NCBI GenBank assembly: GCA_046757165.1
Contig: JBHHXT010000016.1
Span: 1-49,219 of the forward strand
DNA length: 49,219 bases
Source: a bacterium
Lineage (GTDB): Bacteria; Zhuqueibacterota; Zhuqueibacteria; Oceanimicrobiales; Oceanimicrobiaceae
Reading direction: 5' to 3'
This document shows, piece after piece, positions 73 through 49,136 of the stretch. Made by a program: the position numbers and the translations under genes. How positions within the stretch are numbered: position 1 is the first letter of the stretch; each line of letters starts with the position of its first letter. The notes under the pieces were generated by a model. It had not been told where the DNA came from and ran no database searches. It saw only the letters and a list, made by a program, of their open reading frames with translations.

Positions 73-1002
73 CTACCGGTTCCGGGACAAAAAAAATCGA
101 AGTGTCGAAGTTGATACGAAGGTTGGCGATTGCCCCTGAGCGCGTTTCACGACCAGAGCCGCCCACTCGCTCATCGTGCGAACGTCTGAGATGGACAGCG
201 CTCCCAGGTCCGCGATCAGGCGCCTGATTTCCGGCATCTCTTCGGCCAGAATGCCCGACATGAGCAACTGGCCTGCCGGCGCCAGGAGACCTTTGAGGTT
301 CTCCAAAAGCGGAAAGAAGGTTCGCTTCGTCAAGTTGGCGAGAATCAAATCCAGGCTGGCCGCAGGCAGCGCCACAGAATCCAGCTCGCCGACGAGCAGC
401 TCGACTTTTGGGGCGCCGAGATTGCGTTTGACGTTTTCCCGCGCCGCCTCGATGGCCACCGGGTCATGGTCCAGGGCAATCACGTGACGCGCGCCGAGTT
501 TCATGGCCGCAATGGCCAGGATTCCTGTGCCGGTCCCCACATCCAGCACCTCTTTGTCACCCATGACCTGGTCCTCGAGCAGGTGGAGCATCAACCGTGT
601 CGTTTCGTGGGTGCCGGTACCAAAGGCCTGCTTCGGGTCGATTTCGATAACAAAGGTGTCGGCCGGTTCGTGCAGCGGCTCCCAGGTCGGCTTGACGATG
701 AATCTCTTAGAAACGCGGCACGGTTTGATCTGCTTTTTCCATTCAGCGTTCCAGTCTTCGCTCGGAGTGAGCGTGAGGGTGTACGTTTGGTCCGGCGTGG
801 TCAAGCCGATCTCCTGGAGCGCCCGCAGGTAGGCCTCTGTTTTTCCGCGCAGCATCGGTTCAGAGAAATCGGGTGAGAAATAGGAGAGGACTTCCTGCTC
901 GAGCTGTTGACAGCCAGCGCACCCCATATCGAACAGAAAGTTCAGGAGTGCCTCACGATTTGCGTCAGTTGCAGGGATGCGAATTTCGAACCAGGGGGCC
1001 AT
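73..1002 (-). CDS. prmA: 50S ribosomal protein L11 methyltransferase
   Basis: EDWNAEWK, IDPKQAFGTGTHETT, SAM motif VLDVGTGTGILAIAA, ILANL, LLMSGIL. ATG at 1002 preferred over GTG at 1008. Confidence 0.95.
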   Translation of the reverse strand: MAPWFEIRIPATDANREALLNFLFDMGCAGCQQLEQEVLSYFSPDFSEPMLRGKTEAYLRALQEIGLTTPDQTYTLTLTPSEDWNAEWKKQIKPCRVSKRFIVKPTWEPLHEPADTFVIEIDPKQAFGTGTHETTRLMLHLLEDQVMGDKEVLDVGTGTGILAIAAMKLGARHVIALDHDPVAIEAARENVKRNLGAPKVELLVGELDSVALPAASLDLILANLTKRTFFPLLENLKGLLAPAGQLLMSGILAEEMPEIRRLIADLGALSISDVRTMSEWAALVVKRAQGQSPTFVSTSTLRFFLSRNR

Positions 1003-1045
1003 GAGCACTTAGTACAGGAATTCGTAATTACTATTAGGTATTTGT

Positions 1046-1121
1046 CTCACGCAAAGACGCCAAGCTCGCAGAGTTTGTTTTTGACCATCATTTCTCTGCG
1101 GACTTTGCGGCTTTGCGTGAG
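1046..1121. repeat. Imperfect 28-bp inverted repeat (CACGCAAAG-type dispersed palindrome)
   Basis: Arm 1046-1073 matches the reverse complement of 1094-1121 at 24/28 positions. An 18-nt exact inverted copy occurs at 40616-40633. Confidence 0.8.
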
Positions 1122-1144
1122 GGGATATGCAATCGAACTAGGAG

Positions 1145-4100
1145 TTAGTTGCCGCGAATGGCAATATTGATGTCGATACCAAACTCCTGAACTTTGGTCG
1201 TACCGGTCTTTTTGAGGGTGGTCTTGCCGATTTCGATGAACGCACCGCCGCGCACCGTGTTGCTGAAGGAGTACTTCACTTCCGGGCGGACCGTCCAGCG
1301 CTCCGTACTGTTGGTGACCACAAAGTCTCCGTTCCCCTGCCTGTTTTTGGTGGTCACTTTGCTGGCCGTGAAAGAGAAAATGAAATTGATCGAGTTCTTC
1401 AGCTCGGCTTTGTTAAAGGGCCAGATGGGGAGCCTGAATCCGGATCGTTTTGAATAGTTGGCCGAAATAGTAAGGTCATCGTTTTCGTTGCGGTTTTCGC
1501 CAAGCTCGATCAGTTGCCCCTCTGAGTTGGTCGAAAAGGTCAGGTTGGAGGTGCGACCGCGATTGACCTGAATGTTGCCGGTAAAGCCGTTCTTGAAGTT
1601 CAACGTCAACTTGCCGAGTGGGCGGAAATTGCTGGAAATGTTTCTTGAATTGAGATTGCTTTCCTGCCCGCGCCAGTTCTCCGTTCTCTGGCCGGAGTAA
1701 CCGTGGCTGAAGGTGACGTTGTTGAACACTTTGTTGAAAAGCGGCAAGCCCTGCAAACCAGAAATTGCGACGGTCCACTCGGGAAAAGGAATATTCAACT
1801 CTTTTTCAGCCAGGTAGCTGATGGTGTTGTTTCCCTGGGCTGTCGTGCCCGTGCTGGTGGTCGAGGTGTTTTCCTGGTCGCTTTGATTGTAGCGCAGCGA
1901 GATATCGATGGCACGCCCCAACGCAATTCCTGAATTGAGCGACATATTCTTGGTCAGGCCGGAGGAAAACAGGTTGCCGCTCACGCCCTCTGCGGTGCCG
2001 ACGCCGGTGGAGTCGCCGCCAAACTGAAAGGCCAGACTCGGTTTCTGGCCGGCGGCAAGACCTGCCTGGGTGTGGTTTTCCCGTTCCGAGTAAGTAAACT
2101 GCACGTCCTTGAAACCAGAGAAGAAACTGCCGACTGCTTTGAGGGGGTTGAACGATTTTCCGGTTTTTTTCTGTTGCAGGAAGCTGAGCTCGTTACGGGG
2201 CTGGTCGCGCTCCCCTCCCGGCCGTCCGCGCGTTGGCCGGCCTCTTCGTCCTCTGCCGCGCGCGCCTTTCGAGCCGCCCCCGAAGACGGAATTGAGCAAC
2301 TGTTTCCACCTGAAGGTGAAGTCTGCCGAGCGGCTGATGTCATTGCTGGCCCTGCGGCCCGTGTCACGGTTCTGCAGAGGGGAGGAAAATCTGTAGTTGA
2401 CATTATATTTGAACGTGTTGGAAAGCCAGCTAAAGACCGTGGGTGAATAAGTGGTTTGGAATTGTTGATTCTGGTCGGTGTCGTTGAAGTCAAGCTGAAA
2501 GAAATCTTTGAACTCCTTGTCTCTTAATTGCGCCTTGTGTGAGCGGCTGTAGGTGACATTGAGGCTTTCGAGGACTTTCATGCTGGCTCGTACGTTGCGG
2601 TCCGAATTAAAGGTCAGGTTTTCATCCGGCTCAGCCAGCTCATTTGTGTTGCGGATGCGGTTTTGTCTCATGGTCTCGATTCTTGTGCCGTTGACACGGG
2701 CGGTGACACTTTGTGGCGTATAGTAGAGCTTGGTCTCTTTGGCTTTGTTGATGAGCGGCAGATTCGGCAGCCAGGCGAAGGGCGAGAAATAGTTGTTGCG
2801 TCCGAAGTCGAGCCGCCATTCCACGTTGCCGGTCCACCGGGTGTTTTTGTTGACGGGCGCGCTCGGCGTCTTGCTGTCTGTGGATGAGCGACCCAGGTTG
2901 ACCGATAGGTTATCGATGAGATTCTTGACAAAGAAGTTTTTCGACTTCGCCGATCTCTTGAAGGAGATGTTGAAGCCGGTCTGCTTGTTGACTTTTTCAA
3001 CCCGGTTACGCAAGTCAGGATCATCGAGGTCACGGGCGATGACTTCCCGGTCCTGACCGGGGAAGTACTTTGGCGTGCTGGTGTTTTCCCTGAAGTTAAG
3101 CGTGAGCGGCATGGAGATTCCGAGTGCTTGCGGCAGCATCTTATCCAGGCTGATATTGGCGTTCAGGCTTTTGCTCAAGCTGTTGTCGCCTGTGCCGAAG
3201 CGGGTGGCGACGTTGTGAAAGTCCGCTTCCTTGCGTTCGATTTCTCCGTTGACCGAGGCAAAATCTGCGATGCGCAAATCGAATCGGCCACGCATGGCCA
3301 TGCCGCGGTCCTGCTCAACCTCAGAAAGACGCAGCTCGTTGAACCAGACGTCGCCGGTAAAGGGCGTTCCGTTTTCATCGACATTTTTGATTCCGAGTGT
3401 CAGGACACGAATATTGGTAAAGGAAGGCGTCCCCTTCACCCTGAGCTCCTTTTCCACACCATCCTGAACAATGCGCTTGCCGACAACCGTACTATCGAAT
3501 TCGAAGAATAGACCCGAAGTATCGCCTAACGATGGGTCAATGGTCGTGAACTCCAAAATGGGTAAATCCATGTGGTTTCTATCATCCCAACCCGGGTAGA
3601 CGCGCGATCGATACTCGTAATAGTTGTTGTTATTGGTGCCAAACCTGACAAAATACTCCAATCCGCTGGTGTCGGTTTCCGTCACCGGCAGATGGGAGCC
3701 GACCGGGTCATCCCCGTACACAAACATCTTGATGCGGTCATAGTGGATATAGTTCTCCCCCTGGAAGAGGCTCTTTTGCGCGATGCCCGCCTCACCGGAG
3801 TTGAGCGTAATCGCTTTCAGCACAAGAGACTGCTCACGCGCCTGAACGCCGGTGACTTTGTCTTCCTCGCCCTGCACGTTGATGGCCTCCAGCGTGCTGG
3901 CGTAAAATGGACTGTCGTGGGTGTTGATCTGGGCGACGGCAAATCTATCGCCAACCTCTTCCGGCGGCGTGAGCTCGCTGCGGTCCTGCAGATCGAATTC
4001 ACTTCTGTTCTTCGCGATGCCAATTTCTTTCCATTCGCTGCCCACCATATTTATTTCGGCGATGCTGATGCGGACGCGCTGGTCCCCCTCGAACTCGAGC

Positions 4101-36430: not shown

Positions 36431-37816
36431 ATGTTGCATGACTATGAGCTGATTCTTCAGAACGAGACAGTTTTGTCGCAGTCTTATCACACGGCCATTC
36501 TTCACGGCTTTCCGGTGGCCCTCTGGCGCTTTCCGCGCACATCTCAGTGTCACGCAATGGTCGACCTTTCAGGGGGCTCGCAGCGGGCGCCGGCCCGGTT
36601 CAGCCACCTGGCGACCGGGTTCATCATGGCTCCGTTTCACAACCGGACGGAGACCGCTTCCTACTTCATCCAGGCGCATCTCTACTTACAAGGTGACACC
36701 TGTTATTTTGGCCCCGCGTCTTCAGAAAAGAAAACGCGTGTTCGAGAAAACCGGAGGCGGTTTGAAAAAACACTGTACAAACTTTGTGCAGGAAATCCTC
36801 CGGTGGTCACGCCGGAACCCTACTGGTTCAGAGGGACGTCCTACAACCCCGGCGGGACGATAATGACAAAAGCCGCCTACTGCCGCCTGGTCGAACGCGC
36901 GTTGGAAGAGATCACCGCTGAGAAGTTGAAGAAGGTGGTGCTGTCGCGCGCCCTGGAAGTGACGTTGGCCCAGGGGTTCTCGCCACAAAACTTGTTCGAC
37001 CACCTTTGCGCCGCTTATCCCAATGCGTTTGTCTCGCTGGTGGCGCTGCCCGGCGTTGGCACGTGGATTGGCGCAACGCCGGAGCTGCTGTTGAGCCAGC
37101 AGAATGATGAATTGACGACCGTGGCCCTGGCCGGGACACGTCCGGTTTCACCTGGAAACGTGACTGGCCTTCCCGCTTCGCACGTCGGTCTGGAGCCTGG
37201 CTCTGAGCGATTCCGGAGTGGGAATCAGGCGTGGGAGCCGGGCGATAACGGAACGTTCAGTCATTCTGAGTGGGCGCAAAAATGGAGCGAAAAGGAGATC
37301 GATGAACAAGCTATCGTGAGCGAGTTTATCCGGCAGGCATTTGCTCACCACAAGATCGATGATTATACGGAGCAGCGCACCGAGTCCGTGCGGATTGGTG
37401 ATCTGCTGCATTTGCAGACAAAGTTCAAGTTGGAGAGCCTCGCCAGCCGTGGCGTCAACGTTGTCGACACCTTGCTGCACTCGCTGCATCCGACGCCAGC
37501 CGTCTGCGGTGTGCCGCAAAGCAAAGCCCTGACCTTTATCGAACGACATGAGTCGCACGCCCGCGAGTTCTACGCCGGTTATCTTGGCCCGGTTAACCTG
37601 GGTGAGCAATCGCATCTGTATGTCAACCTGCGGTGCCTGCAATTGTTGCAGAATTCCGCCTTGCTGTATGCCGGCGGCGGCATCACGATTGATTCCATTC
37701 CTGTGCAGGAGTGGCTGGAAACGGAGCTCAAGCTGGACGCACTGCTGAAGGTGCTCAACGGCGACATCCGGCCTGTGCACGCGGTAAGGCATGGCGAGGT
37801 CTCCTGTTATGAATGA
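36431..37816 (+). CDS. menF: Isochorismate synthase
   Basis: KKVVLSR, YPNAFVSL, WIGATPELLL, ALAGT, KEIDEQ, LHPTPAVCG.P, REFYAGYLG, VNLRC, YAGGGIT.DS....EW.ET..K; first gene of the men cluster. Confidence 0.9.
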   Translation: MLHDYELILQNETVLSQSYHTAILHGFPVALWRFPRTSQCHAMVDLSGGSQRAPARFSHLATGFIMAPFHNRTETASYFIQAHLYLQGDTCYFGPASSEKKTRVRENRRRFEKTLYKLCAGNPPVVTPEPYWFRGTSYNPGGTIMTKAAYCRLVERALEEITAEKLKKVVLSRALEVTLAQGFSPQNLFDHLCAAYPNAFVSLVALPGVGTWIGATPELLLSQQNDELTTVALAGTRPVSPGNVTGLPASHVGLEPGSERFRSGNQAWEPGDNGTFSHSEWAQKWSEKEIDEQAIVSEFIRQAFAHHKIDDYTEQRTESVRIGDLLHLQTKFKLESLASRGVNVVDTLLHSLHPTPAVCGVPQSKALTFIERHESHAREFYAGYLGPVNLGEQSHLYVNLRCLQLLQNSALLYAGGGITIDSIPVQEWLETELKLDALLKVLNGDIRPVHAVRHGEVSCYE

Positions 37817-39518
37817 GTTCAAGCAACGCATTGTCAACATTGCCGAACTTTGTTCACAGAAGCGTATTCGCCACGTGGTTATTTCACCTGGATCCCGTTC
37901 TGCTCCCTTGACCCTCGCGTTCTCGAGACACCCGAAAATGCGGTGCGAAACCGTCGTCGATGAGCGTTCTGCTGCGTTTGTCGCCCTGGGCATCGCTCAG
38001 CAAAGCGACACGCCGGTGGTTTTGATCTGTACCTCGGGTACAGCCGCGCTGAACTATGGTCCGGCCGTGGCAGAAGCTACTTACCAGCACATTCCTTTGC
38101 TGGTTCTGACCGCTGACCGGCCGCCGGAGTGGATTGACCAGAATGACGGCCAAACGATCGTTCAGCATCAGTTGTACGCCCCTCACTGCCGTGCTTTTTT
38201 TGAACTGCCCGTAGATGACCACGATCCGTCGGCGAAGTGGCACACAGAGCGGATACTATGCGAAGCGATCAATCGTTGCCTCTGGCCCATCCCGGGACCG
38301 GTGCATGTCAATGTGCCGCTGCGAGAGCCGCTTTATCCCGTAGATGAATTGACATATGACAAAAATCCGAAAATAATTTCCCAGGCACAACCTGAGATGG
38401 CACTGCCGGGCAAGGCCTGGAGTGAGCTGTTGTCCGGCTGGCGGCAGGCGCGCAAAAAGCTGATCGTGGCGGGGCTGCAAAAACCGGTGCCCGGGTTGTG
38501 TGAGCAATTGCATGCGCTACAGCAAGACCCGGGTGTCGTTTTCCTCTCGGACGTCACAGGCAACTGTCAGGCCGCGCAAACCGTGGCGCACTCGGATATG
38601 ATTCTGAGCACAGACTCTGACGATTTGCTGGCTGAGCTGCAGCCAGACCTGCTGATCACCTTCGGCGGCCCGGTGGTGTCGAAGAGCCTGAAGCTGTTTC
38701 TGCGCAGATTCCGGCCGCGGGCGCACTGGCAATTACAGCGCGGGCCAAATGCGGTCGACACGTTTCAGTCTTTGACGCAAATTCTGCCCGTCGAGCCGCC
38801 TTATTTTGTCCAGGAACTTCTGGCGCGAACAGGTGCGCCACAAACCTCCTCCGGACCCACTTATCGCGCGGTCTGGCAGCAGAAGGAGACCACGGCTCAA
38901 GACCATCTGGCAAGATTCCTGCGGCCGGCGCTCTTTTCTGAACTCTCTGCCATGCGGTCGGTTCTGCGACATCTGCCACCGGAGAGCCACCTGCAGTTGG
39001 GCAACAGCTCCATCGTGCGATTGGCCAACTTCATTTCGCTTGTGGACAAACCAGGCGTTCGCGTCAACTCGAACCGTGGCACCAGTGGTATCGACGGCAC
39101 GGTCAGCACAGCGGTGGGCGCAGCCCTGGCCACGCACATGATCACCACGCTCATCACCGGAGACCTGGCGTTTTTTTATGACCGCAACGGGTTGTGGTGC
39201 AAGACGTTGCCAGCCAATCTGCGCATCATCATCTTCAACAATGGCGGTGGCGGCATTTTCCGCATTCTGGACGGCAGCAGAACCCTGCCCGAGCTGACAG
39301 ACCATTTCGAAGTTGCGCACAATCTCACCGCCAGAAACACGGCGGCTGACCACAATCTGGACTATTTTTGGTGTGATTCCAAGGCCTCTCTGCAACAGCA
39401 TTTGTCGGCCTTTTTTGCGGACAGTGAGCGACCGGCCATTCTCGAAGTCGCTTTCAACAAGATGGTCAATTCCGAGATGTTTTTGAGGTTCAAAAAAATC
39501 ATGAGGGAAATTAGATGA
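37809..39518 (+). CDS. menD: SEPHCHC synthase MenD
   Basis: [77 protein letters not shown]. Confidence 0.96.
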
Positions 39519-40342
39519 GTCAAAATGCAGTTGAATGGCAAACGATAAAGGAATTCGAGGATATTCTCTTCCTTTTTCACCAGGGCATTGCCAAGATCAG
39601 CTTCAACCGCCCGCAGGTTCACAACGCGTTCCGGCCCAAAACCGTCTTCGAGTTGTCGGAAGCGTTCGAAAGCGCACGTCAGAATCCCGACATTGGGGTG
39701 GTTATCCTCACAGGTGAGGGCGGCAATGCGTTTTGCAGCGGCGGTGACCAGAACGTGCGCGACGTCGGCGGGTATGTGGGCAGTGACGGCGTGCCCCGGC
39801 TCAACATCCTCGACGTTCAGAAGCAAATCCGTTCTATGCCGAAGCCCGTCATCGCGATGGTTGCGGGCTGGGCCATTGGGGGCGGCCACGTGCTGCATGT
39901 GGTCTGCGACCTGACCATCGCCGCGGACAACGCACGCTTCGGTCAAACCGGCCCGAAGGTTGGCAGTTTTGATGGCGGCTTTGGGGCCTCCTATTTGGCG
40001 CGCTGCGTCGGTCAGAAGAAGGCGCGGGAAATCTGGTACCTGTGTGACCAGTACGATGCCGGAGAAGCCTTGCAAATGGGACTCGTCAACAAGGTCGTGC
40101 CCCTTGCGCAACTGGAAAGCACGACCATCGACTGGTGCAACAAGATCTTGAACAAGAGTCCGATGGCGATCCGCTTACTCAAATCCTCGTTCAATGCCGA
40201 GCTGGACGGCCAGGCCGGCTTACAGGAGCTGGCCGGAAACTCAACCCTGCTCTACTACTTGACCGAGGAAGCCAATGAGGGCCGCAAAGCGTACGTCGAA
40301 AAACGAAAACCGGATTTTTCGAAGTTCCAGCGGTATCCGTAG
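39515..40342 (+). CDS. menB: 1,4-dihydroxy-2-naphthoyl-CoA synthase
   Basis: [69 protein letters not shown]. Confidence 0.97.
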
Positions 40343-40368
40343 GGCAACCGAGACGGCTGCACGCCTGC

Positions 40369-40398
40369 TTGACTTCGTTGAAGAACTTGGCGTATGAT
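40369..40398 (+). promoter_or_regulatory. Possible internal sigma70 promoter upstream of menA
   Basis: TTGACT, 18-nt spacer, TATGAT. Confidence 0.4.
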
Positions 40399-40450
40399 GA
40401 TCAAGCACCGATCATACACGGCTGGGGCTGGCTAAAAAGGCCCCTGTGCC

Positions 40451-40568
40451 TGTCATTTCGAGCGAATGCGAGAAATCTTTTCGGGCAAGGGACTGCGGTG
40501 GAAACAATTGTTTTCCAAAACCCGACGATTGGTGCACAGTGAGATTCCTCCCTTCGGGCGGAATGACA
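40451..40568. repeat. Palindromic MITE-like element (TGTCATT...AATGACA type)
   Basis: Ends TGTCATTTCG...AGAAATCT and AGATTCCT...CGGAATGACA (terminal IR 9/10); central GGAAACAATTGTTTTCC hairpin. Confidence 0.75.
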
Positions 40569-40615
40569 TTTCGGGGCTTTGGGACACCCCACCATGACGC
40601 TTGCAAAGTTTTTGA

Positions 40616-40698
40616 TCACGCAAAGCCGCAAAGGACACAACGAAGAAACAAGATAGCTTCTATTTGAAAGCTTCGTGCTCTTCGCGTCTTTGTGTGAG
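40616..40698. repeat. Second copy of the CACGCAAAG-type dispersed inverted repeat
   Basis: TCACGCAAAGCCGCAAAG (40616-40633) is the reverse complement of 1103-1120; partner arm CTTCGCGTCTTTGTGTGAG near 40680-40698. Confidence 0.75.
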
Positions 40699-40752
40699 AC
40701 TTTTTTGTGCTCGATGTTTGCAGGAAGTATTCTATGTTACGTTGAGGGGTAG

Positions 40753-41628
40753 ATGCCGAAATTCAAAACCTGGCTTTCCGCCTTCCGACTCCGCACCTTG
40801 CCTCTGGCGACCGCGGGCATTGTGCTCGGCAGTTTACTGGCCGCAGCAGAGCACGCCCTCCGTTGGCGGGTCGCTGCGCTCTGCCTGGTGACGGCGGTCG
40901 TGTTGCAGATTTTATCCAATCTGGCGAACGATTACGGCGACAGTGTGCACGGCGCAGACAGCGAGAACCGTGTCGGGCCACGGCGCGCCACGCAGGCCGG
41001 CCACATCTCTGTTGCTGCCATGCGCAGGGCCGTACTTGTGTTTGCTGGATTGGGTCTGGCAGCCGGCTATGTCTTGATTCGGGACGAAAGCCTCGTCTTT
41101 CATGCCGCCGGGTTGGCGGCTATCGCCGCGGCGGTGACCTACACTCTCGGACCGAGGCCGTATGGTTACGCAGGTCTGGGGGATATTTTTGTCTTGGTGT
41201 TTTTTGGCGTGGTCGCAGTGTTCGGGACGTACTACTTGCACACGCACAATCTCAATTATCACGTTCTATGGCCCGCCTGCTCCTGTGGGTTGTTCTCTGT
41301 GGCGGTGCTCAATATCAACAACATTCGGGACAGGCGGTCGGACAAGATCGCCGGCAAGATCACGATTCCTGTCCGGATTGGAGAAAGGAAGGCGCGGCTT
41401 TATCATTGGACTTTGCTGATCACGGGGGCAGGATGCGCGGTGGTATTTGTCCTGCTCGAGTTTCGCACTTACTGGCAGTTTTTGTTTTTTCTCAGTTTGC
41501 CTTTGATTCTGAAAAACGGCCTGTTTGTCGCGAGAACACAAGCTGCACAGCTCGACCCTTGCCTGAAACAGATGGCCATCGCGACTTTGGTGTTTGCTTT
41601 TAGTTTTGGTCTCGGGGGGCTGTTCTGA
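40753..41628 (+). CDS. menA: 1,4-dihydroxy-2-naphthoate polyprenyltransferase
   Basis: WLSAFRLRTLPL, LQILSNLANDYGD..HGAD...RVGP.R, YT.GP.PYGY.GLGD, VLNINNIRD...D...GK.T.PV. Confidence 0.96.
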   Translation: MPKFKTWLSAFRLRTLPLATAGIVLGSLLAAAEHALRWRVAALCLVTAVVLQILSNLANDYGDSVHGADSENRVGPRRATQAGHISVAAMRRAVLVFAGLGLAAGYVLIRDESLVFHAAGLAAIAAAVTYTLGPRPYGYAGLGDIFVLVFFGVVAVFGTYYLHTHNLNYHVLWPACSCGLFSVAVLNINNIRDRRSDKIAGKITIPVRIGERKARLYHWTLLITGAGCAVVFVLLEFRTYWQFLFFLSLPLILKNGLFVARTQAAQLDPCLKQMAIATLVFAFSFGLGGLF

Positions 41629-41653
41629 TACCGGTTGACGATCTGACACTTCT

Positions 41654-41793
41654 GTAACGCGACATTTATGTCGCCGAGCTCGAGGTTTAACGGGTTCCCA
41701 CGTTCCGCGTGGAAATCAGTTTTTGACGCCGCGCGTCGAGTAAAGGGACGCAGAGCGTCAAACCCGGGTGCCAACGCAGAGCGTTGGCACCAG
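41654..41793. repeat. Cluster of REP-like hairpins between menA and menC
   Basis: GCGACAT-TT-ATGTCGC; TTCCCACG-TTCCG-CGTGGAAA; GACGC-CGC-GCGTC; GACGC-AGA-GCGTC; GGTGCCAACGC-AGA-GCGTTGGCACC. Confidence 0.75.
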
Positions 41794-41852
41794 ACAACAT
41801 TCTGATACCTTTTAGACAGCCCCTTATGTTTCATGCAGTTACGTGAATACAT

Positions 41853-42914
41853 ATGGAAGCAAAATTCAAAAGATTTACTTTGAAATTCATCGAACCAATG
41901 GGGACCTCGCGTGGCATCCTGCGGGAGCGCGAGACTCATATTCTTGGCCTCGAGAACGCTGCCGGCACCCTGGGGCTGGGCGAGTGTGCCCCTCTGACAG
42001 GGCTAAGCATAGATGACCGCCCGCACTTGGCCCAAAAACTTCAGGCTGTCTGTGACCAGTTGAACGACGGCAAAAGCGCTGACGAGCTGGACCTGTCGGA
42101 CTGGCCGGCGATCCAATTCGGCGTCGAGACGGCTCTGCTGGACTTGCGCGCCGGGGGCACACAGCTCCTGTTTGACACCAGTTTCACCCGCGGGACCCGG
42201 CTCATTGCCACCAACGGCCTGATTGTCATGGGCCAGGCCGACCACATGCTGCGCCAGGTGGTGGACAAGGTCGCTGCCGGGTTCAGATGTATCAAAATAA
42301 AGGTCGGCGCGTTGAAGTTCGACGATGAATGCCGTTTGCTCACGGAAGTTCGAAAGCAGTTTCCACCCCGGCAAATCGAGCTGCGGTTGGATGCCAACGG
42401 GGCGTTTGACGAAGATGAGGCTCTGGAAAAGCTCAAACGGCTTTCTGAGTTCACTGTCCATTCCCTGGAGCAGCCCATCAAAGCGGGCCGCTGGCAGGCG
42501 ATGGCTCGTTTGTGCTGCGAAAGCCCCATCGCCATCGCGCTGGACGAAGAATTGATCGGGATTGAGACGCTGGCTGAACGTCGGGAGCTGCTGCAAACCA
42601 TCCGGCCACAGTTCATCATCCTGAAGCCAACGCTGTTGGGCGGATTCGAGTCTGCACAGGTCTGGATCGATCTGGCGGAGACCTGCGACATCGGCACCTG
42701 GGTGACCTCGGCGTTGGAGTCCAATGTCGGGCTGAACAGCATCAGTCAGTGGACCAGCACGCGGGTCTGCAATCGGGTGCAGGGGTTGGGAACCGGTCGT
42801 CTCTATCAGACGAACTTTGCCTCGGCCCTGAGCCTCCGGGAGGGGGCATTGCACTATGACCCGCGTCGGGCACCGTCACCGCCGGCGGACCTTTCTCAAT
42901 TGCAGCTGCAATGA
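41853..42914 (+). CDS. menC: o-succinylbenzoate synthase
   Basis: GTSRG.L, GECAPL.GLS.D, KIKVG, LRLDANGAF, SLEQPI, PIALDEELIG, IILKPTLLGG, TSALESNVGL, QGLGTG.LY. Confidence 0.94.
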   Translation: MEAKFKRFTLKFIEPMGTSRGILRERETHILGLENAAGTLGLGECAPLTGLSIDDRPHLAQKLQAVCDQLNDGKSADELDLSDWPAIQFGVETALLDLRAGGTQLLFDTSFTRGTRLIATNGLIVMGQADHMLRQVVDKVAAGFRCIKIKVGALKFDDECRLLTEVRKQFPPRQIELRLDANGAFDEDEALEKLKRLSEFTVHSLEQPIKAGRWQAMARLCCESPIAIALDEELIGIETLAERRELLQTIRPQFIILKPTLLGGFESAQVWIDLAETCDIGTWVTSALESNVGLNSISQWTSTRVCNRVQGLGTGRLYQTNFASALSLREGALHYDPRRAPSPPADLSQLQLQ

Positions 42915-42920
42915 GGGCGC

Positions 42921-44060
42921 ATGCCTTTTGAAATTCTCAAACTAAGGGGACAAATTCTTACCCGGGAGTGGATTCTGGCGCATTTCGACGCGCTCGACCC
43001 CAATCGTTTTGGCGGGGTGGAAGCAAAAGCGCTGAGGTTTTGTGGACAATGGCTAGCTGGCACCGAGGAATTCCAGGTGCAAACCTCGGGCTCGACCGGA
43101 AAGCCGAAAACGATTTCTTTGAACCGGAGGCAGATGGCGCTGAGCGCCCGCCTGACCGGTCAGGCGCTCGACCTCAAAGATGGGGATCAGGCGCTCGTTT
43201 GTCTTTCCCCCTTTCATATCGGCGGCGTGATGATGCTGGTGCGCGGTCTCGAGCTGGGTCTCGAGATGACCTTTGTGCCCCCCTGTGCCAATCCCCTTGC
43301 CTGTTCTGACTTGAGTCCTTCTGCTCACTTCGACTTCACCGCGATGGTGCCCTTGCAGCTGCAGACGATTCTGCATGGTGGCCGCCGGCATGAGGCCATG
43401 TTATCGCGGATGAAAGCCATTCTCGTCGGCGGCGCCCCTGTTTCTGAGGCTCTGGTACGACTGTTGCGGAGAATCCGATCCCCTGTCTACCAGACCTTTG
43501 GCATGACCGAAACCGTCAGCCACATCGCGCTGCGAAGGCTAAATGGCCCGTCCAGCTCGCCAGAGTACAAAGTCCTGCCCGGCGTGCAGATCGGACAGGA
43601 CGCGCGCGGCTGCCTGACCATTCGCTCGCCGCTAACCAACGGCCAGGTACTGGTCAGCAACGATCTGGTTGAATTGAAATCAGACAGCCGGTTCGTGTGG
43701 CTGGGCCGGCTGGACAACGTCATCAATAGCGGCGGTGTGAAGGTGAGGGCAGAAAAAGTGGAACAGGCCATCGCCGAAGTCCTGGAGGACAGCGTGGGTC
43801 GGGTTGACTCGAATATCGCGTTTTTGGTAGCCGGAGTGCCGGACACCAGGCTGGGTGAGAAAGTCGTGGCCGTCTTCGAGGCGCCGGAATTTACAAGCCC
43901 GGATCAGGGGGAAATGCTAACACGTCTGTCGCACAAACTTGCCAAATATGAGCTACCGAAAGCGCTCCTGTTCGTGCCAGCTCTCGTCCGCGCGGCCAAC
44001 GGCAAGATCGACCGGCGGGCGACTTTGAAGCGGCTTCTCCCCTCAAAGTCGCATTCGTGA
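42921..44060 (+). CDS. menE: O-succinylbenzoate-CoA ligase (short Bacteroidota-like form)
   Basis: TSGSTGKPK, HIGG.MMLVR, AMVPLQ, LVGGAP, TFGMTETVSHIA, GRLDNVINSGGVK, NGKIDR. Confidence 0.9.
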   Translation: MPFEILKLRGQILTREWILAHFDALDPNRFGGVEAKALRFCGQWLAGTEEFQVQTSGSTGKPKTISLNRRQMALSARLTGQALDLKDGDQALVCLSPFHIGGVMMLVRGLELGLEMTFVPPCANPLACSDLSPSAHFDFTAMVPLQLQTILHGGRRHEAMLSRMKAILVGGAPVSEALVRLLRRIRSPVYQTFGMTETVSHIALRRLNGPSSSPEYKVLPGVQIGQDARGCLTIRSPLTNGQVLVSNDLVELKSDSRFVWLGRLDNVINSGGVKVRAEKVEQAIAEVLEDSVGRVDSNIAFLVAGVPDTRLGEKVVAVFEAPEFTSPDQGEMLTRLSHKLAKYELPKALLFVPALVRAANGKIDRRATLKRLLPSKSHS

Positions 44061-45895: not shown

Positions 45896-47032
45896 TTAGT
45901 CTGGTTCCCGGACAGAATAGAGAATCTCTGCATAAACGCCGAAGTGGTCGCTGGCGTGGACGCCGTCGATGACCTCGTCGAGCACCACCCGGCTGTCGCT
46001 GACAGAAATCCCTGGCGATTGCCTGACAAAAACATAATCGATGCGCTTCGGCGTCGCCTCATGCATGCGCTTCAGCACAGTGTACAGGTCTAATGTCTGA
46101 GATTCCTGCGCTTCGTGCCGGCTCAGGTAGTGAGTCTGGTAATTTCGGTTCCGGTCCGGGTCCCAGGTAAAGCCCGGCGCTTGTGGGTGCACCTTTTGAA
46201 AGGTGTCGAGCAGGCCAAATTCCACAAGGTTCTTTATCTCCCGGGCCTCGTCGGTCGCGTTGAAGTCCCCCATCAAAATAGAAGGATGAGGACCGGCGGT
46301 TTTTTGAATAAAGGCCAGGGTCTTTTCGGCTTCTGACAACCGCCAGGCTTGTCCTGCTTTAATTTGTTCGAGGACCTGGCGGCGGTTTTCCGGGGTCGCG
46401 AGCCCGCGAGAGGTCAAGTCCTCTGCTTTCTGCTTGATTTGCGCTGTTGCGAGCATCGACGCATGCCAGTGTGTGACGAAGACGTAGAGCGGGGTGCCTT
46501 TGTTGATGACCTTGACTGCGATCACCTGGGTGGCATCTGAAAAGTGGAAGGTGAAGAAATTGCCGACGTGGCCGCCGGAGAGCTGTTGACGACCGGCAAA
46601 CTCTGCCCGCAGGTCCTTGCGCGTTAGAATCGCGTCGCCTTCGCGCAGATTCCACGGCAGCCCGACCGGTCCCAGCCGGACACCGCCGATACCGACATGA
46701 AAGAATACGTCGTAGCCCAGGTCGCCGGCCAGACGGTCGGCGTAACCGGGCAGTTTGTTCGCTTCCTGCACACCGATGATATCCGGGCTCATGGCCTTGA
46801 TTTGATGAACAAGCGCCTGGTACCGCTTTTCGCGCACGGTTTTGGTTTCATACTCGCCCATCCAGACATTGCCCTGGTAGTCGAGGCCAGACCAGACGTT
46901 GATATCGAGAATCCTGAGGGTGTCAAGAGCGGCCGGGGGAGCCCGCGTGGTTCTATCCGCTTCGGTCTGGCAGGCAAGACAGAGCACCAGAAGCGGAACA
47001 CAGGAAAGGGCAGGCAGCGAAAATGACTTCAA
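45896..47032 (-). CDS. Endonuclease/exonuclease/phosphatase (EEP) family lipoprotein
   Basis: Lipobox LCLAC; LDINVW, IGVQE, VTH, MGDFN, RIDYVF, ASDHFGV. The TTG start overlaps the upstream stop (TTGA). Confidence 0.88.
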   Translation of the reverse strand: MKSFSLPALSCVPLLVLCLACQTEADRTTRAPPAALDTLRILDINVWSGLDYQGNVWMGEYETKTVREKRYQALVHQIKAMSPDIIGVQEANKLPGYADRLAGDLGYDVFFHVGIGGVRLGPVGLPWNLREGDAILTRKDLRAEFAGRQQLSGGHVGNFFTFHFSDATQVIAVKVINKGTPLYVFVTHWHASMLATAQIKQKAEDLTSRGLATPENRRQVLEQIKAGQAWRLSEAEKTLAFIQKTAGPHPSILMGDFNATDEAREIKNLVEFGLLDTFQKVHPQAPGFTWDPDRNRNYQTHYLSRHEAQESQTLDLYTVLKRMHEATPKRIDYVFVRQSPGISVSDSRVVLDEVIDGVHASDHFGVYAEILYSVREPD

Positions 47033-47505
47033 GCTTCTTCTTCCACCAACTTGTATTCGGTTGTAATAACGATGGCTTTGTGCAGGGAGCGATAGACCGG
47101 GCAGTACCCGGCGTGGAGGTTGTGCACGCGGTCAATAGTTTCCTTCAACTCAGGTGGCGCCGCCAGCGAATAAGCGACATGGATTCGGCGAATGACGAGC
47201 ACTTTGTCTTCAAGCTCGACCTCACCGGTGACCTCGGCCGTCAGCTTTTGATTGCTCGCGTCGATCTTGCGCGCTTCCAGCGCGCCGCCAAAGGTGCCGG
47301 TCAGTCAGCCCCCGGCCGCCGCGATGACGTAATCCAGGGTCGTGGCATGGGGCTCAGACACTTCAGGACGCACGCCGTAGTGTTCAGCGATAGCGCCGTG
47401 CACCCCGAAGCGGACGGCTTCTTTCTCTGCCGGCAGATACGCTTCACGCAACGGCCCTTCCCTGCGTTCGATACGGACTTTCGAGACATAAACGACTTCA
47501 GACAT
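47029..47505 (-). CDS. OsmC-family selenoprotein (158 aa; in-frame UGA at codon 67 read as Sec)
   Basis: AAGGAG RBS and ATG at 47505. ...LDYVIAAAGG-UGA(47307-47305)-LTGTFGGALEARKID... continues open for 91 codons through H.GYCPVYRSL to the stop at 47031-47029. The UGA occupies the first OsmC catalytic Cys position and C135 (CPV) is the second. Confidence 0.85.
47266..47304 (-). promoter_or_regulatory. Bacterial SECIS-like hairpin
   Basis: GCGCGCU-GGA-AGCGCGC stem-loop (47285-47269); G-first apical loop starts 27 nt 3' of the UGA; CUU/AAG can form a lower stem. Confidence 0.7.
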
Positions 47506-47608
47506 GATCTCTCCTTTTTTGTGGGTTGCCCAGCAAATAGAATCCACCTGAGTTGGGATTCGATTCATCACCCCCGGAAAACCAGATTGTCCTATGGTTG
47601 GCCTGTGA

Positions 47609-47661
47609 CCAATTCAACAATTCAACAATGAAACAATAGAACAATAGAACAATAAAACAAT
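47609..47661. repeat. 8-bp tandem repeat (ACAATNNA) x about 6.5
   Basis: CCAATTCA ACAATTCA ACAATGAA ACAATAGA ACAATAGA ACAATAAA ACAAT, immediately after the gabD stop. Confidence 0.85.
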
Positions 47662-49136
47662 TACCCCTCAATCCCCCCCAAACACATGAACTTTACCTCC
47701 AGATACTCTTCAATGCCATACTTCGACCCTTCCCGCCCCAGGCCGGACTGTTTGACGCCGCCGAAGGGCGCGACCGCCGTGGAAATCATTCCCGTATTGA
47801 TGCCCACCATGCCGTATTCCAGCGCTTCTGCGACCCGCCAGATGCGCCCGGCGTCCTGGGTATAGAAATAGGCCGCGAGACCGTACGGCGTGTTGTTTGC
47901 CCGCGCAATGGCCTCTTCCTCGGTCTTGAAGCGGCTGATGGGCGCCACCGGGCCGAAGATTTCATCCCGCGTGCAGGCCATTTCATCGGTGACGTTGGTG
48001 AGCACGGTCGCTTCGTAGAAGGAGTGCCCCAGCTCGTGGCGCTTGCCGCCGGTGAGCACGGAAGCGCCTTTTGCCCGCGCATCTGCAACGATGCTTTCCA
48101 CCTTCTCGAGCGCAGCTTCATTGATCAGTGGGCCGATGGCCACCCCCTCGTCCAGACCGGGCCCAACCTGGAGCCGTTGCACGGCAGCCGCAAGCTGCTC
48201 TGAAAAGGGTTCATAGACGCCTTCCTGGACGAAGATACGGTTGGCACAAACGCAGGTCTGGCCGGCATTGCGGTATTTACTGGCGATGGCCCCGGCCACG
48301 GCCGCATCCAGGTCGGCATCGTCGAAGACGAGGAAGGGGGCGTTCCCCCCCAGCTCGAGTGACACTTTCTTGATCGTGTCCGCACACTGCCGCATCAGGA
48401 TCTTGCCCACTTCTGTTGACCCGGTAAACGAAAATTTGCGCACCGTCGGGTTCGCGGTCAGCTCGCCACCGATGACCGAGGCGCGCCGCGAAGTGACGAC
48501 ATTGAAAACGCCGGCCGGAACCCCGGCGCGATGCGCCAATTCGGCCATCGCCAGGCCGGAAAGGGGCGTTTCGGACGCCGGCTTCCAAACCACGGGACAG
48601 CCCGCCGCGATGGCCGCGGAGGCTTTCTTGGCCATCATGGCGGTGGGGAAATTCCACGGCGTGATCATGCCCACAACCCCGATGGGCTGTTTGATGACGA
48701 TGTTGCGCACATTGCGGGCATGACTGGGAATCACATCCCCGTAGATGCGCTTCGCTTCCTCTGCATACCACTGATAAAAGGCTGCCGCGTAGTGAATCTC
48801 GCCGCGCGCTTCGGCCACGGGCTTGCCTTGCTCCGAGGTCATCAGCACCGCGAGATCGTCGACATGTTCCACCATCAGGTCGTGCCAGCGATGGAGAATC
48901 GCGGCGCGCTCGCCGGCAGTCGTGGAGCGCCAGGCCGGCCACGCTGAGCTGGCCGCGTCGATGGCGCAACGCGTTTCGTCAACGCCCATATCGGGCACCG
49001 CAGTGATGACGTTGCCGGTTGCCGGATTGGTGACGTCGAAAGTCTTGCCGCTATCCGCACCGACCCACTGGCCGTCGATGTAGGCGCGGGTGCGCAGCAG
49101 ATTTGTATCTGTAAGCTTGATCATGGTTTGCTCCAT
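47661..49136 (-). CDS. gabD: NAD(P)-dependent succinate-semialdehyde dehydrogenase
   Basis: MTSEQGKP..EA.GE, ITPWNFP, KPASETP, FTGSTEVG, LELGGNAP, RNAGQTCVCANR, EIFGPV, PFGGVKQSGLGREGSKYGIEEYLE.K. Confidence 0.93.
   Translation of the reverse strand: MEQTMIKLTDTNLLRTRAYIDGQWVGADSGKTFDVTNPATGNVITAVPDMGVDETRCAIDAASSAWPAWRSTTAGERAAILHRWHDLMVEHVDDLAVLMTSEQGKPVAEARGEIHYAAAFYQWYAEEAKRIYGDVIPSHARNVRNIVIKQPIGVVGMITPWNFPTAMMAKKASAAIAAGCPVVWKPASETPLSGLAMAELAHRAGVPAGVFNVVTSRRASVIGGELTANPTVRKFSFTGSTEVGKILMRQCADTIKKVSLELGGNAPFLVFDDADLDAAVAGAIASKYRNAGQTCVCANRIFVQEGVYEPFSEQLAAAVQRLQVGPGLDEGVAIGPLINEAALEKVESIVADARAKGASVLTGGKRHELGHSFYEATVLTNVTDEMACTRDEIFGPVAPISRFKTEEEAIARANNTPYGLAAYFYTQDAGRIWRVAEALEYGMVGINTGMISTAVAPFGGVKQSGLGREGSKYGIEEYLEVKFMCLGGIEG

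Follow-up and report, generated by a model that had tools for sequence, protein, structure and literature searches.

An OsmC-fold gene divided by an in-frame UGA very likely encodes a selenoprotein of a widespread branch with its own conserved hairpin

Selenocysteine (Sec)-containing proteins of the OsmC type are known. An OsmC-like selenoprotein family with the motif UxxT (COG1765/PF02566) was predicted from Sargasso Sea sequences by Zhang, Fomenko and Gladyshev in 2005 (PMC1088965), and later sources show it recurring in GOS (PMC2398784), in review tables (PMC9312934, PMC13188914) and in deep-Sep (PMC12013277); in the Olavius set (PMC1976440), OsmC-like was not detected as a selenoprotein. 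The Ohr/OsmC superfamily is described as having two Cys about 60 residues apart (PMC5384416). To these, the definition of Ohr and OsmC adds an Arg and a Glu, a pair that is absent from the YhfA/Ohr-like group (PMC5384416, PMC8945050). An Ohr-like enzyme without the catalytic Glu/Arg is reported to have had no peroxidase activity in the authors' assays (PMC5384416), and YhfA-type proteins are termed uncharacterised (PMC8945050).

We analysed a stretch of bacterial DNA of 49,219 nt (contig JBHHXT010000016.1 of assembly GCA_046757165.1), referred to here as the window. The features discussed below are listed in the direction of transcription.

47661–49136, minus strand: succinate-semialdehyde dehydrogenase gene (gabD type), upstream (TIGR01780, 700 bits, above cut-off).
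47511–47516, minus strand: Shine–Dalgarno-like AAGGAG, 5 nt 5' of the ATG (sequence).
47029–47505, minus strand: OsmC-fold gene, 158 codons with UGA67 taken as Sec (frame translation, Pfam PF02566, structure model).
47305–47307, minus strand: in-frame TGA, codon 67, predicted selenocysteine in the column of the first (peroxidatic) Cys (homologue DNA and Cys proteins; alignment with YhfA 1ml8, with 2onf and with 2opl).
47269–47285, minus strand: putative SECIS hairpin GCGCGCU-GGA-AGCGCGC, loop 47278–47276 at +27 (codon entropy and compensatory change).
47101–47103, minus strand: Cys135 (TGC), putative resolving cysteine (Cys in 174/174 TGA loci and 32/32 Cys-form proteins).
45896–47032, minus strand: endonuclease/exonuclease/phosphatase family gene with a lipoprotein-like N-terminus (lipobox by eye), downstream (PF03372, 58.8 bits).

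The OsmC-fold frame starts with an ATG at 47505 and runs for 66 codons to the TGA at 47307–47305, after which 91 sense codons lead to the final stop, TGA 47031–47029. Our re-translation reproduced the product proposed in the first-pass annotation, with U67 and C135. The split annotation that it foresaw was also found: the downstream half of the window gene has its own 91-aa protein entry (P0067), and in a KSB1 relative the annotation gives two products, a hypothetical protein of 66 aa and an OsmC of 90 aa. Sequencing error at the UGA was checked in contigs of four runs, all from one hydrothermal-vent study and three of them possibly the source of this DNA; in 4/4, no other letter occurred at any position in 46800–47800. 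The gene that databases cut in two is very likely one intact gene with an active-site selenocysteine.

The identity of codon 67 was assessed in 174 full-length DNA homologues, consisting of the best 80 of at least 507 genome-contig matches, the best 80 of at least 472 metagenome matches and 14 matches found among 167 genomes of the window's own phylum. Duplicates and the gene of the window itself are counted in this set, which comprises 164 distinct sequences and, being picked by likeness to the query, is biased to close relatives. Nine weak in-phylum matches were left out; these are YhfA-like genes, six with Cys at column 67 and three unaligned there. Judged by record titles, the genome-contig matches came from Acidobacteria, Myxococcota, Binatia and others. 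Column 67 was TGA in 174/174 loci, with TAA, TAG and TGG in none, and Cys135 was present in every locus. Residue 67 of the best 120 database proteins was Trp in 81, Cys in 32, and another residue or a gap in seven. Cys forms included proteins of Tenacibaculum, Flavobacterium and Pontimicrobium and a large unnamed group. The first-pass annotation had proposed a Sec67/Cys135 couple and a check for Cys or Sec at column 67 in homologues; both columns proved invariant, with TGA pairing with Cys across homologues. In a tree of 35 rows, the TGA and Cys forms, intermixed with each other, were together set off from the remaining rows by a branch with support 97/91. A divergent TGA sub-branch (40–43% identity; L112–L116) was found in the window's own order and carries a compensatory U-A pair together with Ala75Val.

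When this branch was compared with the 2005 family (NF041052, OsmC_like_Se; representative MCS5647933.1), both were found to have the OsmC fold with Sec in the column of the first Cys, to retain the second Cys, to carry an in-frame SECIS directly downstream of the UGA, and to have Cys homologues. The motif of the 2005 family, GF-U-LLT (GIGF-U-LLT in every sequence examined), contrasts with GG-U-LTG in the window branch, from which UxxT is absent: the order is U-L-T-G-T, with Gly at +3 in 174/174 loci and Thr at +4. The second Cys lies at +71 (counted by eye) in the 2005 family versus +68 here, and the SECIS loop at about +21, coded in an RY motif, versus +27, coded in GALEAR; for the 2005 family, these positions are those of the sequences examined. 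Against a cut-off of 95, the NF041052 model scored 13.5 bits for two orthologues and 11.9–21.7 bits for three Cys forms, and the window gene gave no match at E 1; genes of the true type (L212, L217) scored 165 and 136 bits. The best BLAST matches of the window branch to true members of the 2005 family had E values of 0.28 and 5.5. A careful tree separated the two groups; a quick tree of 43 rows joined them as sisters (support 80). The statement in the first-pass annotation that Sec-containing OsmC-like proteins are known therefore holds insofar as such a family has been published, but the window gene belongs to a different branch (UxxG, 12–22 bits against 95, another SECIS). This widespread branch is missing from the catalogues checked. 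Our literature search found no description of it, which does not by itself establish its absence from print. Separately, a protein of 436 aa encoded in the window's genome (G000:C60:15326-16408; L213, L218) contains two OsmC-like domains. The second scores 105 bits with NF041052, above the cut-off, and has Cys, and in the first the catalytic column is occupied by Asp.

The best sequence and structure matches of the branch were to the YhfA/Ohr-like subfamily (E. coli YhfA, 1ml8; Ta0195, 2onf), with 28–30% identity to YhfA-like genes across some 100 aa. Both have two redox positions, the first of them preceded by GG, as well as an acidic residue at -9, and neither shows the Ohr/OsmC Glu-Arg pair. 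Grouping of the window branch with YhfA-like rows was not rejected (p-AU 0.71). Unlike YhfA, the branch has Sec in place of Cys and a longer beta3-alpha1 linker containing a short helix with invariant His36 and Tyr43, and it scored 13–14 bits versus 138 with the PRK10738 model. It likewise differs from the Ohr/OsmC lipoyl-dependent peroxidases (TIGR03561, TIGR03562), whose catalytic Glu is absent from the window protein and whose catalytic Arg appears to be. With TIGR03562 it scored 17.3 bits against a cut-off of 85.8, and TIGR03561 (cut-off 88.85) gave no match at E 1e-5 in the window's genome.

The fold itself was well recognised: the window protein scored 54.4 bits with Pfam OsmC PF02566 (cut-off 27.5), and an AlphaFold2 monomer model, built from a 29-row alignment with Cys at position 67, had a pLDDT of 92.4 and the order three strands, helix, three strands, helix. 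Residue 67 sits in the long helix 56–78 of this model; its counterpart in 2onf, 2opl and 1ml8 is the first Cys of those proteins. The top structure matches (Foldseek, VIA) were Ta0195 2onf, YhfA 1ml8, the Mycoplasma OsmC-like protein 1lql, and E. coli and Thermus OsmC, with Ohr proteins 1–3 Z units from these. The two redox positions, U67 and C135, are 68 residues apart and invariant. With ungapped anchoring on the Cys rather than superposition of side chains, position -10 was Glu in 3/3 OsmC loci above the TIGR03562 cut-off versus Leu, Ile or Val in 174/174 loci here, and position -9 was an invariant Asp58 where YhfA-like genes have Glu. No conserved Arg was found inside the beta1-beta2 loop (the Ohr site) or the beta3-alpha1 loop (the OsmC site); Arg20, just past the first loop, is invariant in the 174 TGA loci but is Asn in 21/32 Cys forms. 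Residues invariant in both Sec and Cys forms were H36, Y43, T56, D58, Y59, T71, R79 and C135. By its sequence, the window protein has the 2-Cys OsmC layout and falls outside the Ohr and OsmC subfamilies. His36, Tyr43, Thr56, Asp58, Tyr59, Thr71 and Arg79 are, speculatively, candidates for a different active-site set.

The hairpin noted in the first-pass annotation, with a G-first loop 27 nt past the UGA, was recovered as described. It spans +20 to +36 with the loop starting at +27, and its 7 bp stem has an energy of -11.2 kcal/mol. The bSECIS consensus, as given in PMC13188914, is a loop of 3–9 nt with G in the first two loop positions, located 16–37 nt from the UGA, on a stem of 4–16 bp with an MFE of at most -7.5; the hairpin agrees with these values, with its GGA loop at +27, 7 bp and -11.2 kcal/mol. 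Fold z-scores were +0.4 (46 nt) and +0.6 (68 nt), reaching -2.9 only for an 88-nt piece. A loose home-made bSECIS rule, applied as a background test behind ordinary stops of the window's genome, was positive behind 74/1047 TGA stops and 90/1282 TAA/TAG stops, and no positive combined a GGA triloop with a stem of at least 7 pairs. The hairpin alone is thus unexceptional by chance, and it is conservation rather than energy that takes it beyond chance.

This conservation was evident at the codon level. Among 69 conserved multi-codon positions, the lowest codon entropies were those of codons 75, 76, 78, 74 and 79, which are exactly the stem: Ala75 was GCG in 159/159, Leu76 CTG in 164/164 and Ala78 GCG in 157/164, and the codons of Gly74 and Arg79 varied almost only between C and U, with pairing to G kept. 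In the 164 distinct sequences, pair +23/+33 was C-G in 157, U-A in five and broken in two. The U-A change is compensatory and, being confined to one divergent clade of five sequences, counts as a single event. The GGA loop was conserved in 163/164. The peptide coded by the hairpin, GALEAR, was present in 75/81 of the database proteins with W (=TGA) at position 67 versus 5/32 Cys proteins, as expected if the constraint on the RNA lapses with the UGA. Selection on the hairpin at the RNA level across phyla is therefore shown. The SECIS reading that the first-pass annotation gave it is well supported by the low-entropy stem codons, the compensatory change and the loss of GALEAR in Cys forms. We also observed contigs that differ in a few letters and appear to stem from other organisms of the same metagenomes; they match only the UGA-plus-hairpin stretch (window 47266–47318) at 90% or more and look like a DNA-level echo of SECIS conservation.

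The Sec machinery was searched for in the window's genome (6.09 Mb, 531 contigs, 99.98% complete). The organism had been taken to be Sec-utilising, and selA, selB, selD and selC (tRNA-Sec) were indeed all present. SelA scored 484 bits and SelB 359 bits. The tRNA-Sec (Rfam, 69.7 bits) has the anticodon UCA, a long variable arm and a G discriminator. Two SelD were found, one of them a Sec form encoded directly after selB on C43 with its own in-frame TGA, followed at +21 by a hairpin with a GGA triloop as in the OsmC gene. The second is a Cys-form SelD behind a cysteine-desulfurase/Sec-lyase-like domain (N-terminal domain by eye) in a 757-aa frame (G000:C171:~600-2900, minus strand; L009). Two further observations concern the same genome: an HdrA-like gene (G000:C290:2367, plus strand) has an in-frame TGA (DCSI-TGA-ILGP) with a GGUC-loop hairpin at +28 and is a further likely selenoprotein, and a 68-nt inverted repeat (G000:C42:12913-12980) is called tRNA-SeC by ARAGORN and is absent among the Rfam tRNA-Sec matches listed.

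Across carriers, SelA was above cut-off in 45 of the 49 genomes behind 50 of the best 80 genome-contig loci. As for the remaining four, selA is split over contig ends in G185, selB and tRNA-Sec are present in G183, selD is present in G213, and G195 had no match to selA, selB, tRNA-Sec or selD. Within the window's own phylum, selA was found in 11/14 carriers, which is no better than the base rate of 129/167 genomes, so the test does not discriminate there. Of the three carriers without it, G146 has selB and tRNA-Sec; G066 (76% complete) had no match to selA, selB, tRNA-Sec or selD; and G008 (98% complete) had none to selA, selB or tRNA-Sec and has selD in the TGA form only. The OsmC-fold locus of G008 (L107, on C77) is a TGA form with Gly74Ser; either the assembly has a gap or the Sec system is being lost there.

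Readings of UGA67 other than Sec were weighed against these data. Trp at position 67 in 81 of the best 120 database proteins, an outcome named beforehand as one that would speak against Sec, could suggest that UGA stands for Trp (code 4) or some other ordinary residue. Wherever traced, however, these proteins were table-4 mistranslations of TGA: eight of the 81 were traced, and their 60-residue core was identical to TGA loci translated under table 4. Many W proteins extend beyond their own TGA stop, and a W protein used as query returned 80 TGA loci and no TGG (scan, best 80). As far as traced, the W-67 proteins thus appear to be gene-caller artefacts. TGG is also missing from the 174 loci, and in the window's genome TGA is an ordinary stop, ending 1047 long ORFs as well as the OsmC-fold gene itself, with one tRNA-Trp(CCA); a Trp reading is hardly credible. 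The two-piece annotation could instead reflect a pseudogene or a truly split gene, with a stop at the UGA and a restart at the next codon giving chains of 66 and 91 aa, and codon 68 is indeed ATG in 51/174 homologues, although it is CTG in the window gene. Against this, none of the 174 loci has TAA or TAG in place of the TGA, the Leu68 codon is CTC or CTT, unusual starts, in 52/114, and the halves either side of the UGA are both 60–78% conserved among the best 80 genome loci, which span several phyla. Such a break would moreover remove exactly the catalytic residue that homologues keep as Cys, and would leave the hairpin constraint unexplained, making a split gene or pseudogene very improbable. 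Special UCA tRNAs that read UGA as Cys have been described for a few lineages, and partial or complete decoding as Cys would agree with the tolerance of homologues for Cys at 67 and with the few carriers lacking a selA match. It is nevertheless highly implausible here, as the sole credible UCA tRNA is the standard tRNA-Sec and SelA and SelD are intact. Taken together, Sec is very likely the residue inserted at UGA67.

We consider it probable that the gene encodes an OsmC-fold protein whose Sec67, specified by the conserved hairpin, works with Cys135 in a redox enzyme, most probably one that reduces hydroperoxides. Following established bacterial Sec biology, SelB-GTP-Sec-tRNA would bind the GGA hairpin and decode UGA67, and translation would end at a 66-residue fragment when selenium is lacking. 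The chain is predicted to adopt the OsmC/Ohr fold and, as in that family, to form a homodimer (the model being a monomer). The Sec67 selenolate would then attack the oxidant and form a selenylsulfide with Cys135, to be re-reduced by a dithiol donor, perhaps a UxxC redoxin or, if Ohr/OsmC are a guide, dihydrolipoyl proteins. A Sec/Cys redox cycle of this kind is likely; a hydroperoxide as the substrate is favoured only slightly. The earlier assignment to the OsmC/Ohr peroxidases stands for the fold and the two redox positions, but 'peroxidase' is not established because the catalytic Glu of Ohr/OsmC is absent and the Arg apparently so. The main rival, less probable, is a selenoprotein that is no peroxidase, with Sec67/Cys135 exchanging disulfides or persulfides, sensing redox state or binding a metal or metalloid. 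The missing Glu and apparently missing Arg, the 17 bits against 85.8 with TIGR03562, the invariant His36, Tyr43, Asp58 and Tyr59, and the nearest structures (2onf and 1ml8) being structural-genomics proteins all agree with such a role, as do the separate canonical OsmC genes in 3/4 other carrier genomes tested. On the other hand, Sec requires less activation than Cys, and its low pKa may, speculatively, offset the missing Glu/Arg pair. The window's genome has no match to a canonical Ohr or OsmC, so that role is free here. The redox positions are also invariant and have the family spacing (68 residues, compared with about 60 in PMC5384416).

The genomic neighbourhood was assessed in 94 loci. 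The TTG start (47032) of the phosphatase-family gene overlaps the OsmC stop (TTGA), as had been reported; the accompanying argument, that the two are coupled only if the UGA is read through, did not hold, since the downstream half translated alone ends at the same stop. The overlap is weak support also because just one other genome has the phosphatase-family gene behind the homologue; there its frame likewise reaches back to the OsmC stop, and a signal-like stretch begins about 30 codons later. Nor is gabD a conserved partner, being beside no other homologue except for one distant aldehyde dehydrogenase. Between gabD and the OsmC gene, at 47606–47662, lies an intergenic 8-mer array (AACAATAG/AACAATAA/AACAATGA) with 32 BLAST matches on about 20 contigs of the window's genome, i.e., a dispersed short repeat, and with 10–20-fold summed contig depth in the four runs. 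Elsewhere in the window, an ORF run at 37791–44060 (plus strand) resembles, by eye, the menaquinone genes menD, menB, menA, menC and menE.

The commonest neighbour was a redoxin with W-TGA-P-[FY]-C, found near the OsmC gene in 24/94 loci. The motif was seen in 19/21 same-strand redoxin rows, 12 of which end 60 nt or less from the OsmC start; these loci are nearly all from Acidobacteria and, as kin, are not independent. The upstream redoxin (L079:4123-4944 and about 20 other Acidobacteria loci) is AhpC/TSA-like with a C-terminal part that looks DsbD-like by eye, and its part 3' of the UGA scores under all NCBIfam cut-offs. In the window's genome, a UxxC redoxin is unlinked (G000:C152:8688-9470, minus strand) and has an in-frame TGA with a GUC-loop hairpin at +22. 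A bolder and rather unlikely reading is that the branch would be a second OsmC-fold selenoprotein that evolved independently, has a SECIS of its own, builds a non-Ohr active site from His36/Tyr43/Asp58/Tyr59/Arg79 around Sec67, and is recycled by the W-U-P-[FY]-C redoxin selenoprotein rather than by lipoyl proteins. If true, the result would be a redox relay made up entirely of selenoproteins, common among bacteria of soils and sediments and overlooked by annotation.

These findings leave the principles of Sec decoding as they are. What they add is a large, routinely mis-annotated selenoprotein branch, represented in at least 507 genome-contig and at least 472 metagenome stretches. Database entries in two fragments or with a false Trp hide the catalytic residue and undercount the selenoproteomes of Acidobacteria and uncultured phyla. 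The SECIS of this branch shows with unusual clarity how RNA can be under selection within a coding region, the Cys forms serving as natural controls, and is useful for SECIS models and for following how a protein relaxes after the hairpin is lost. Finally, the branch gives experiments a way into the uncharacterised YhfA/Ohr-like group.
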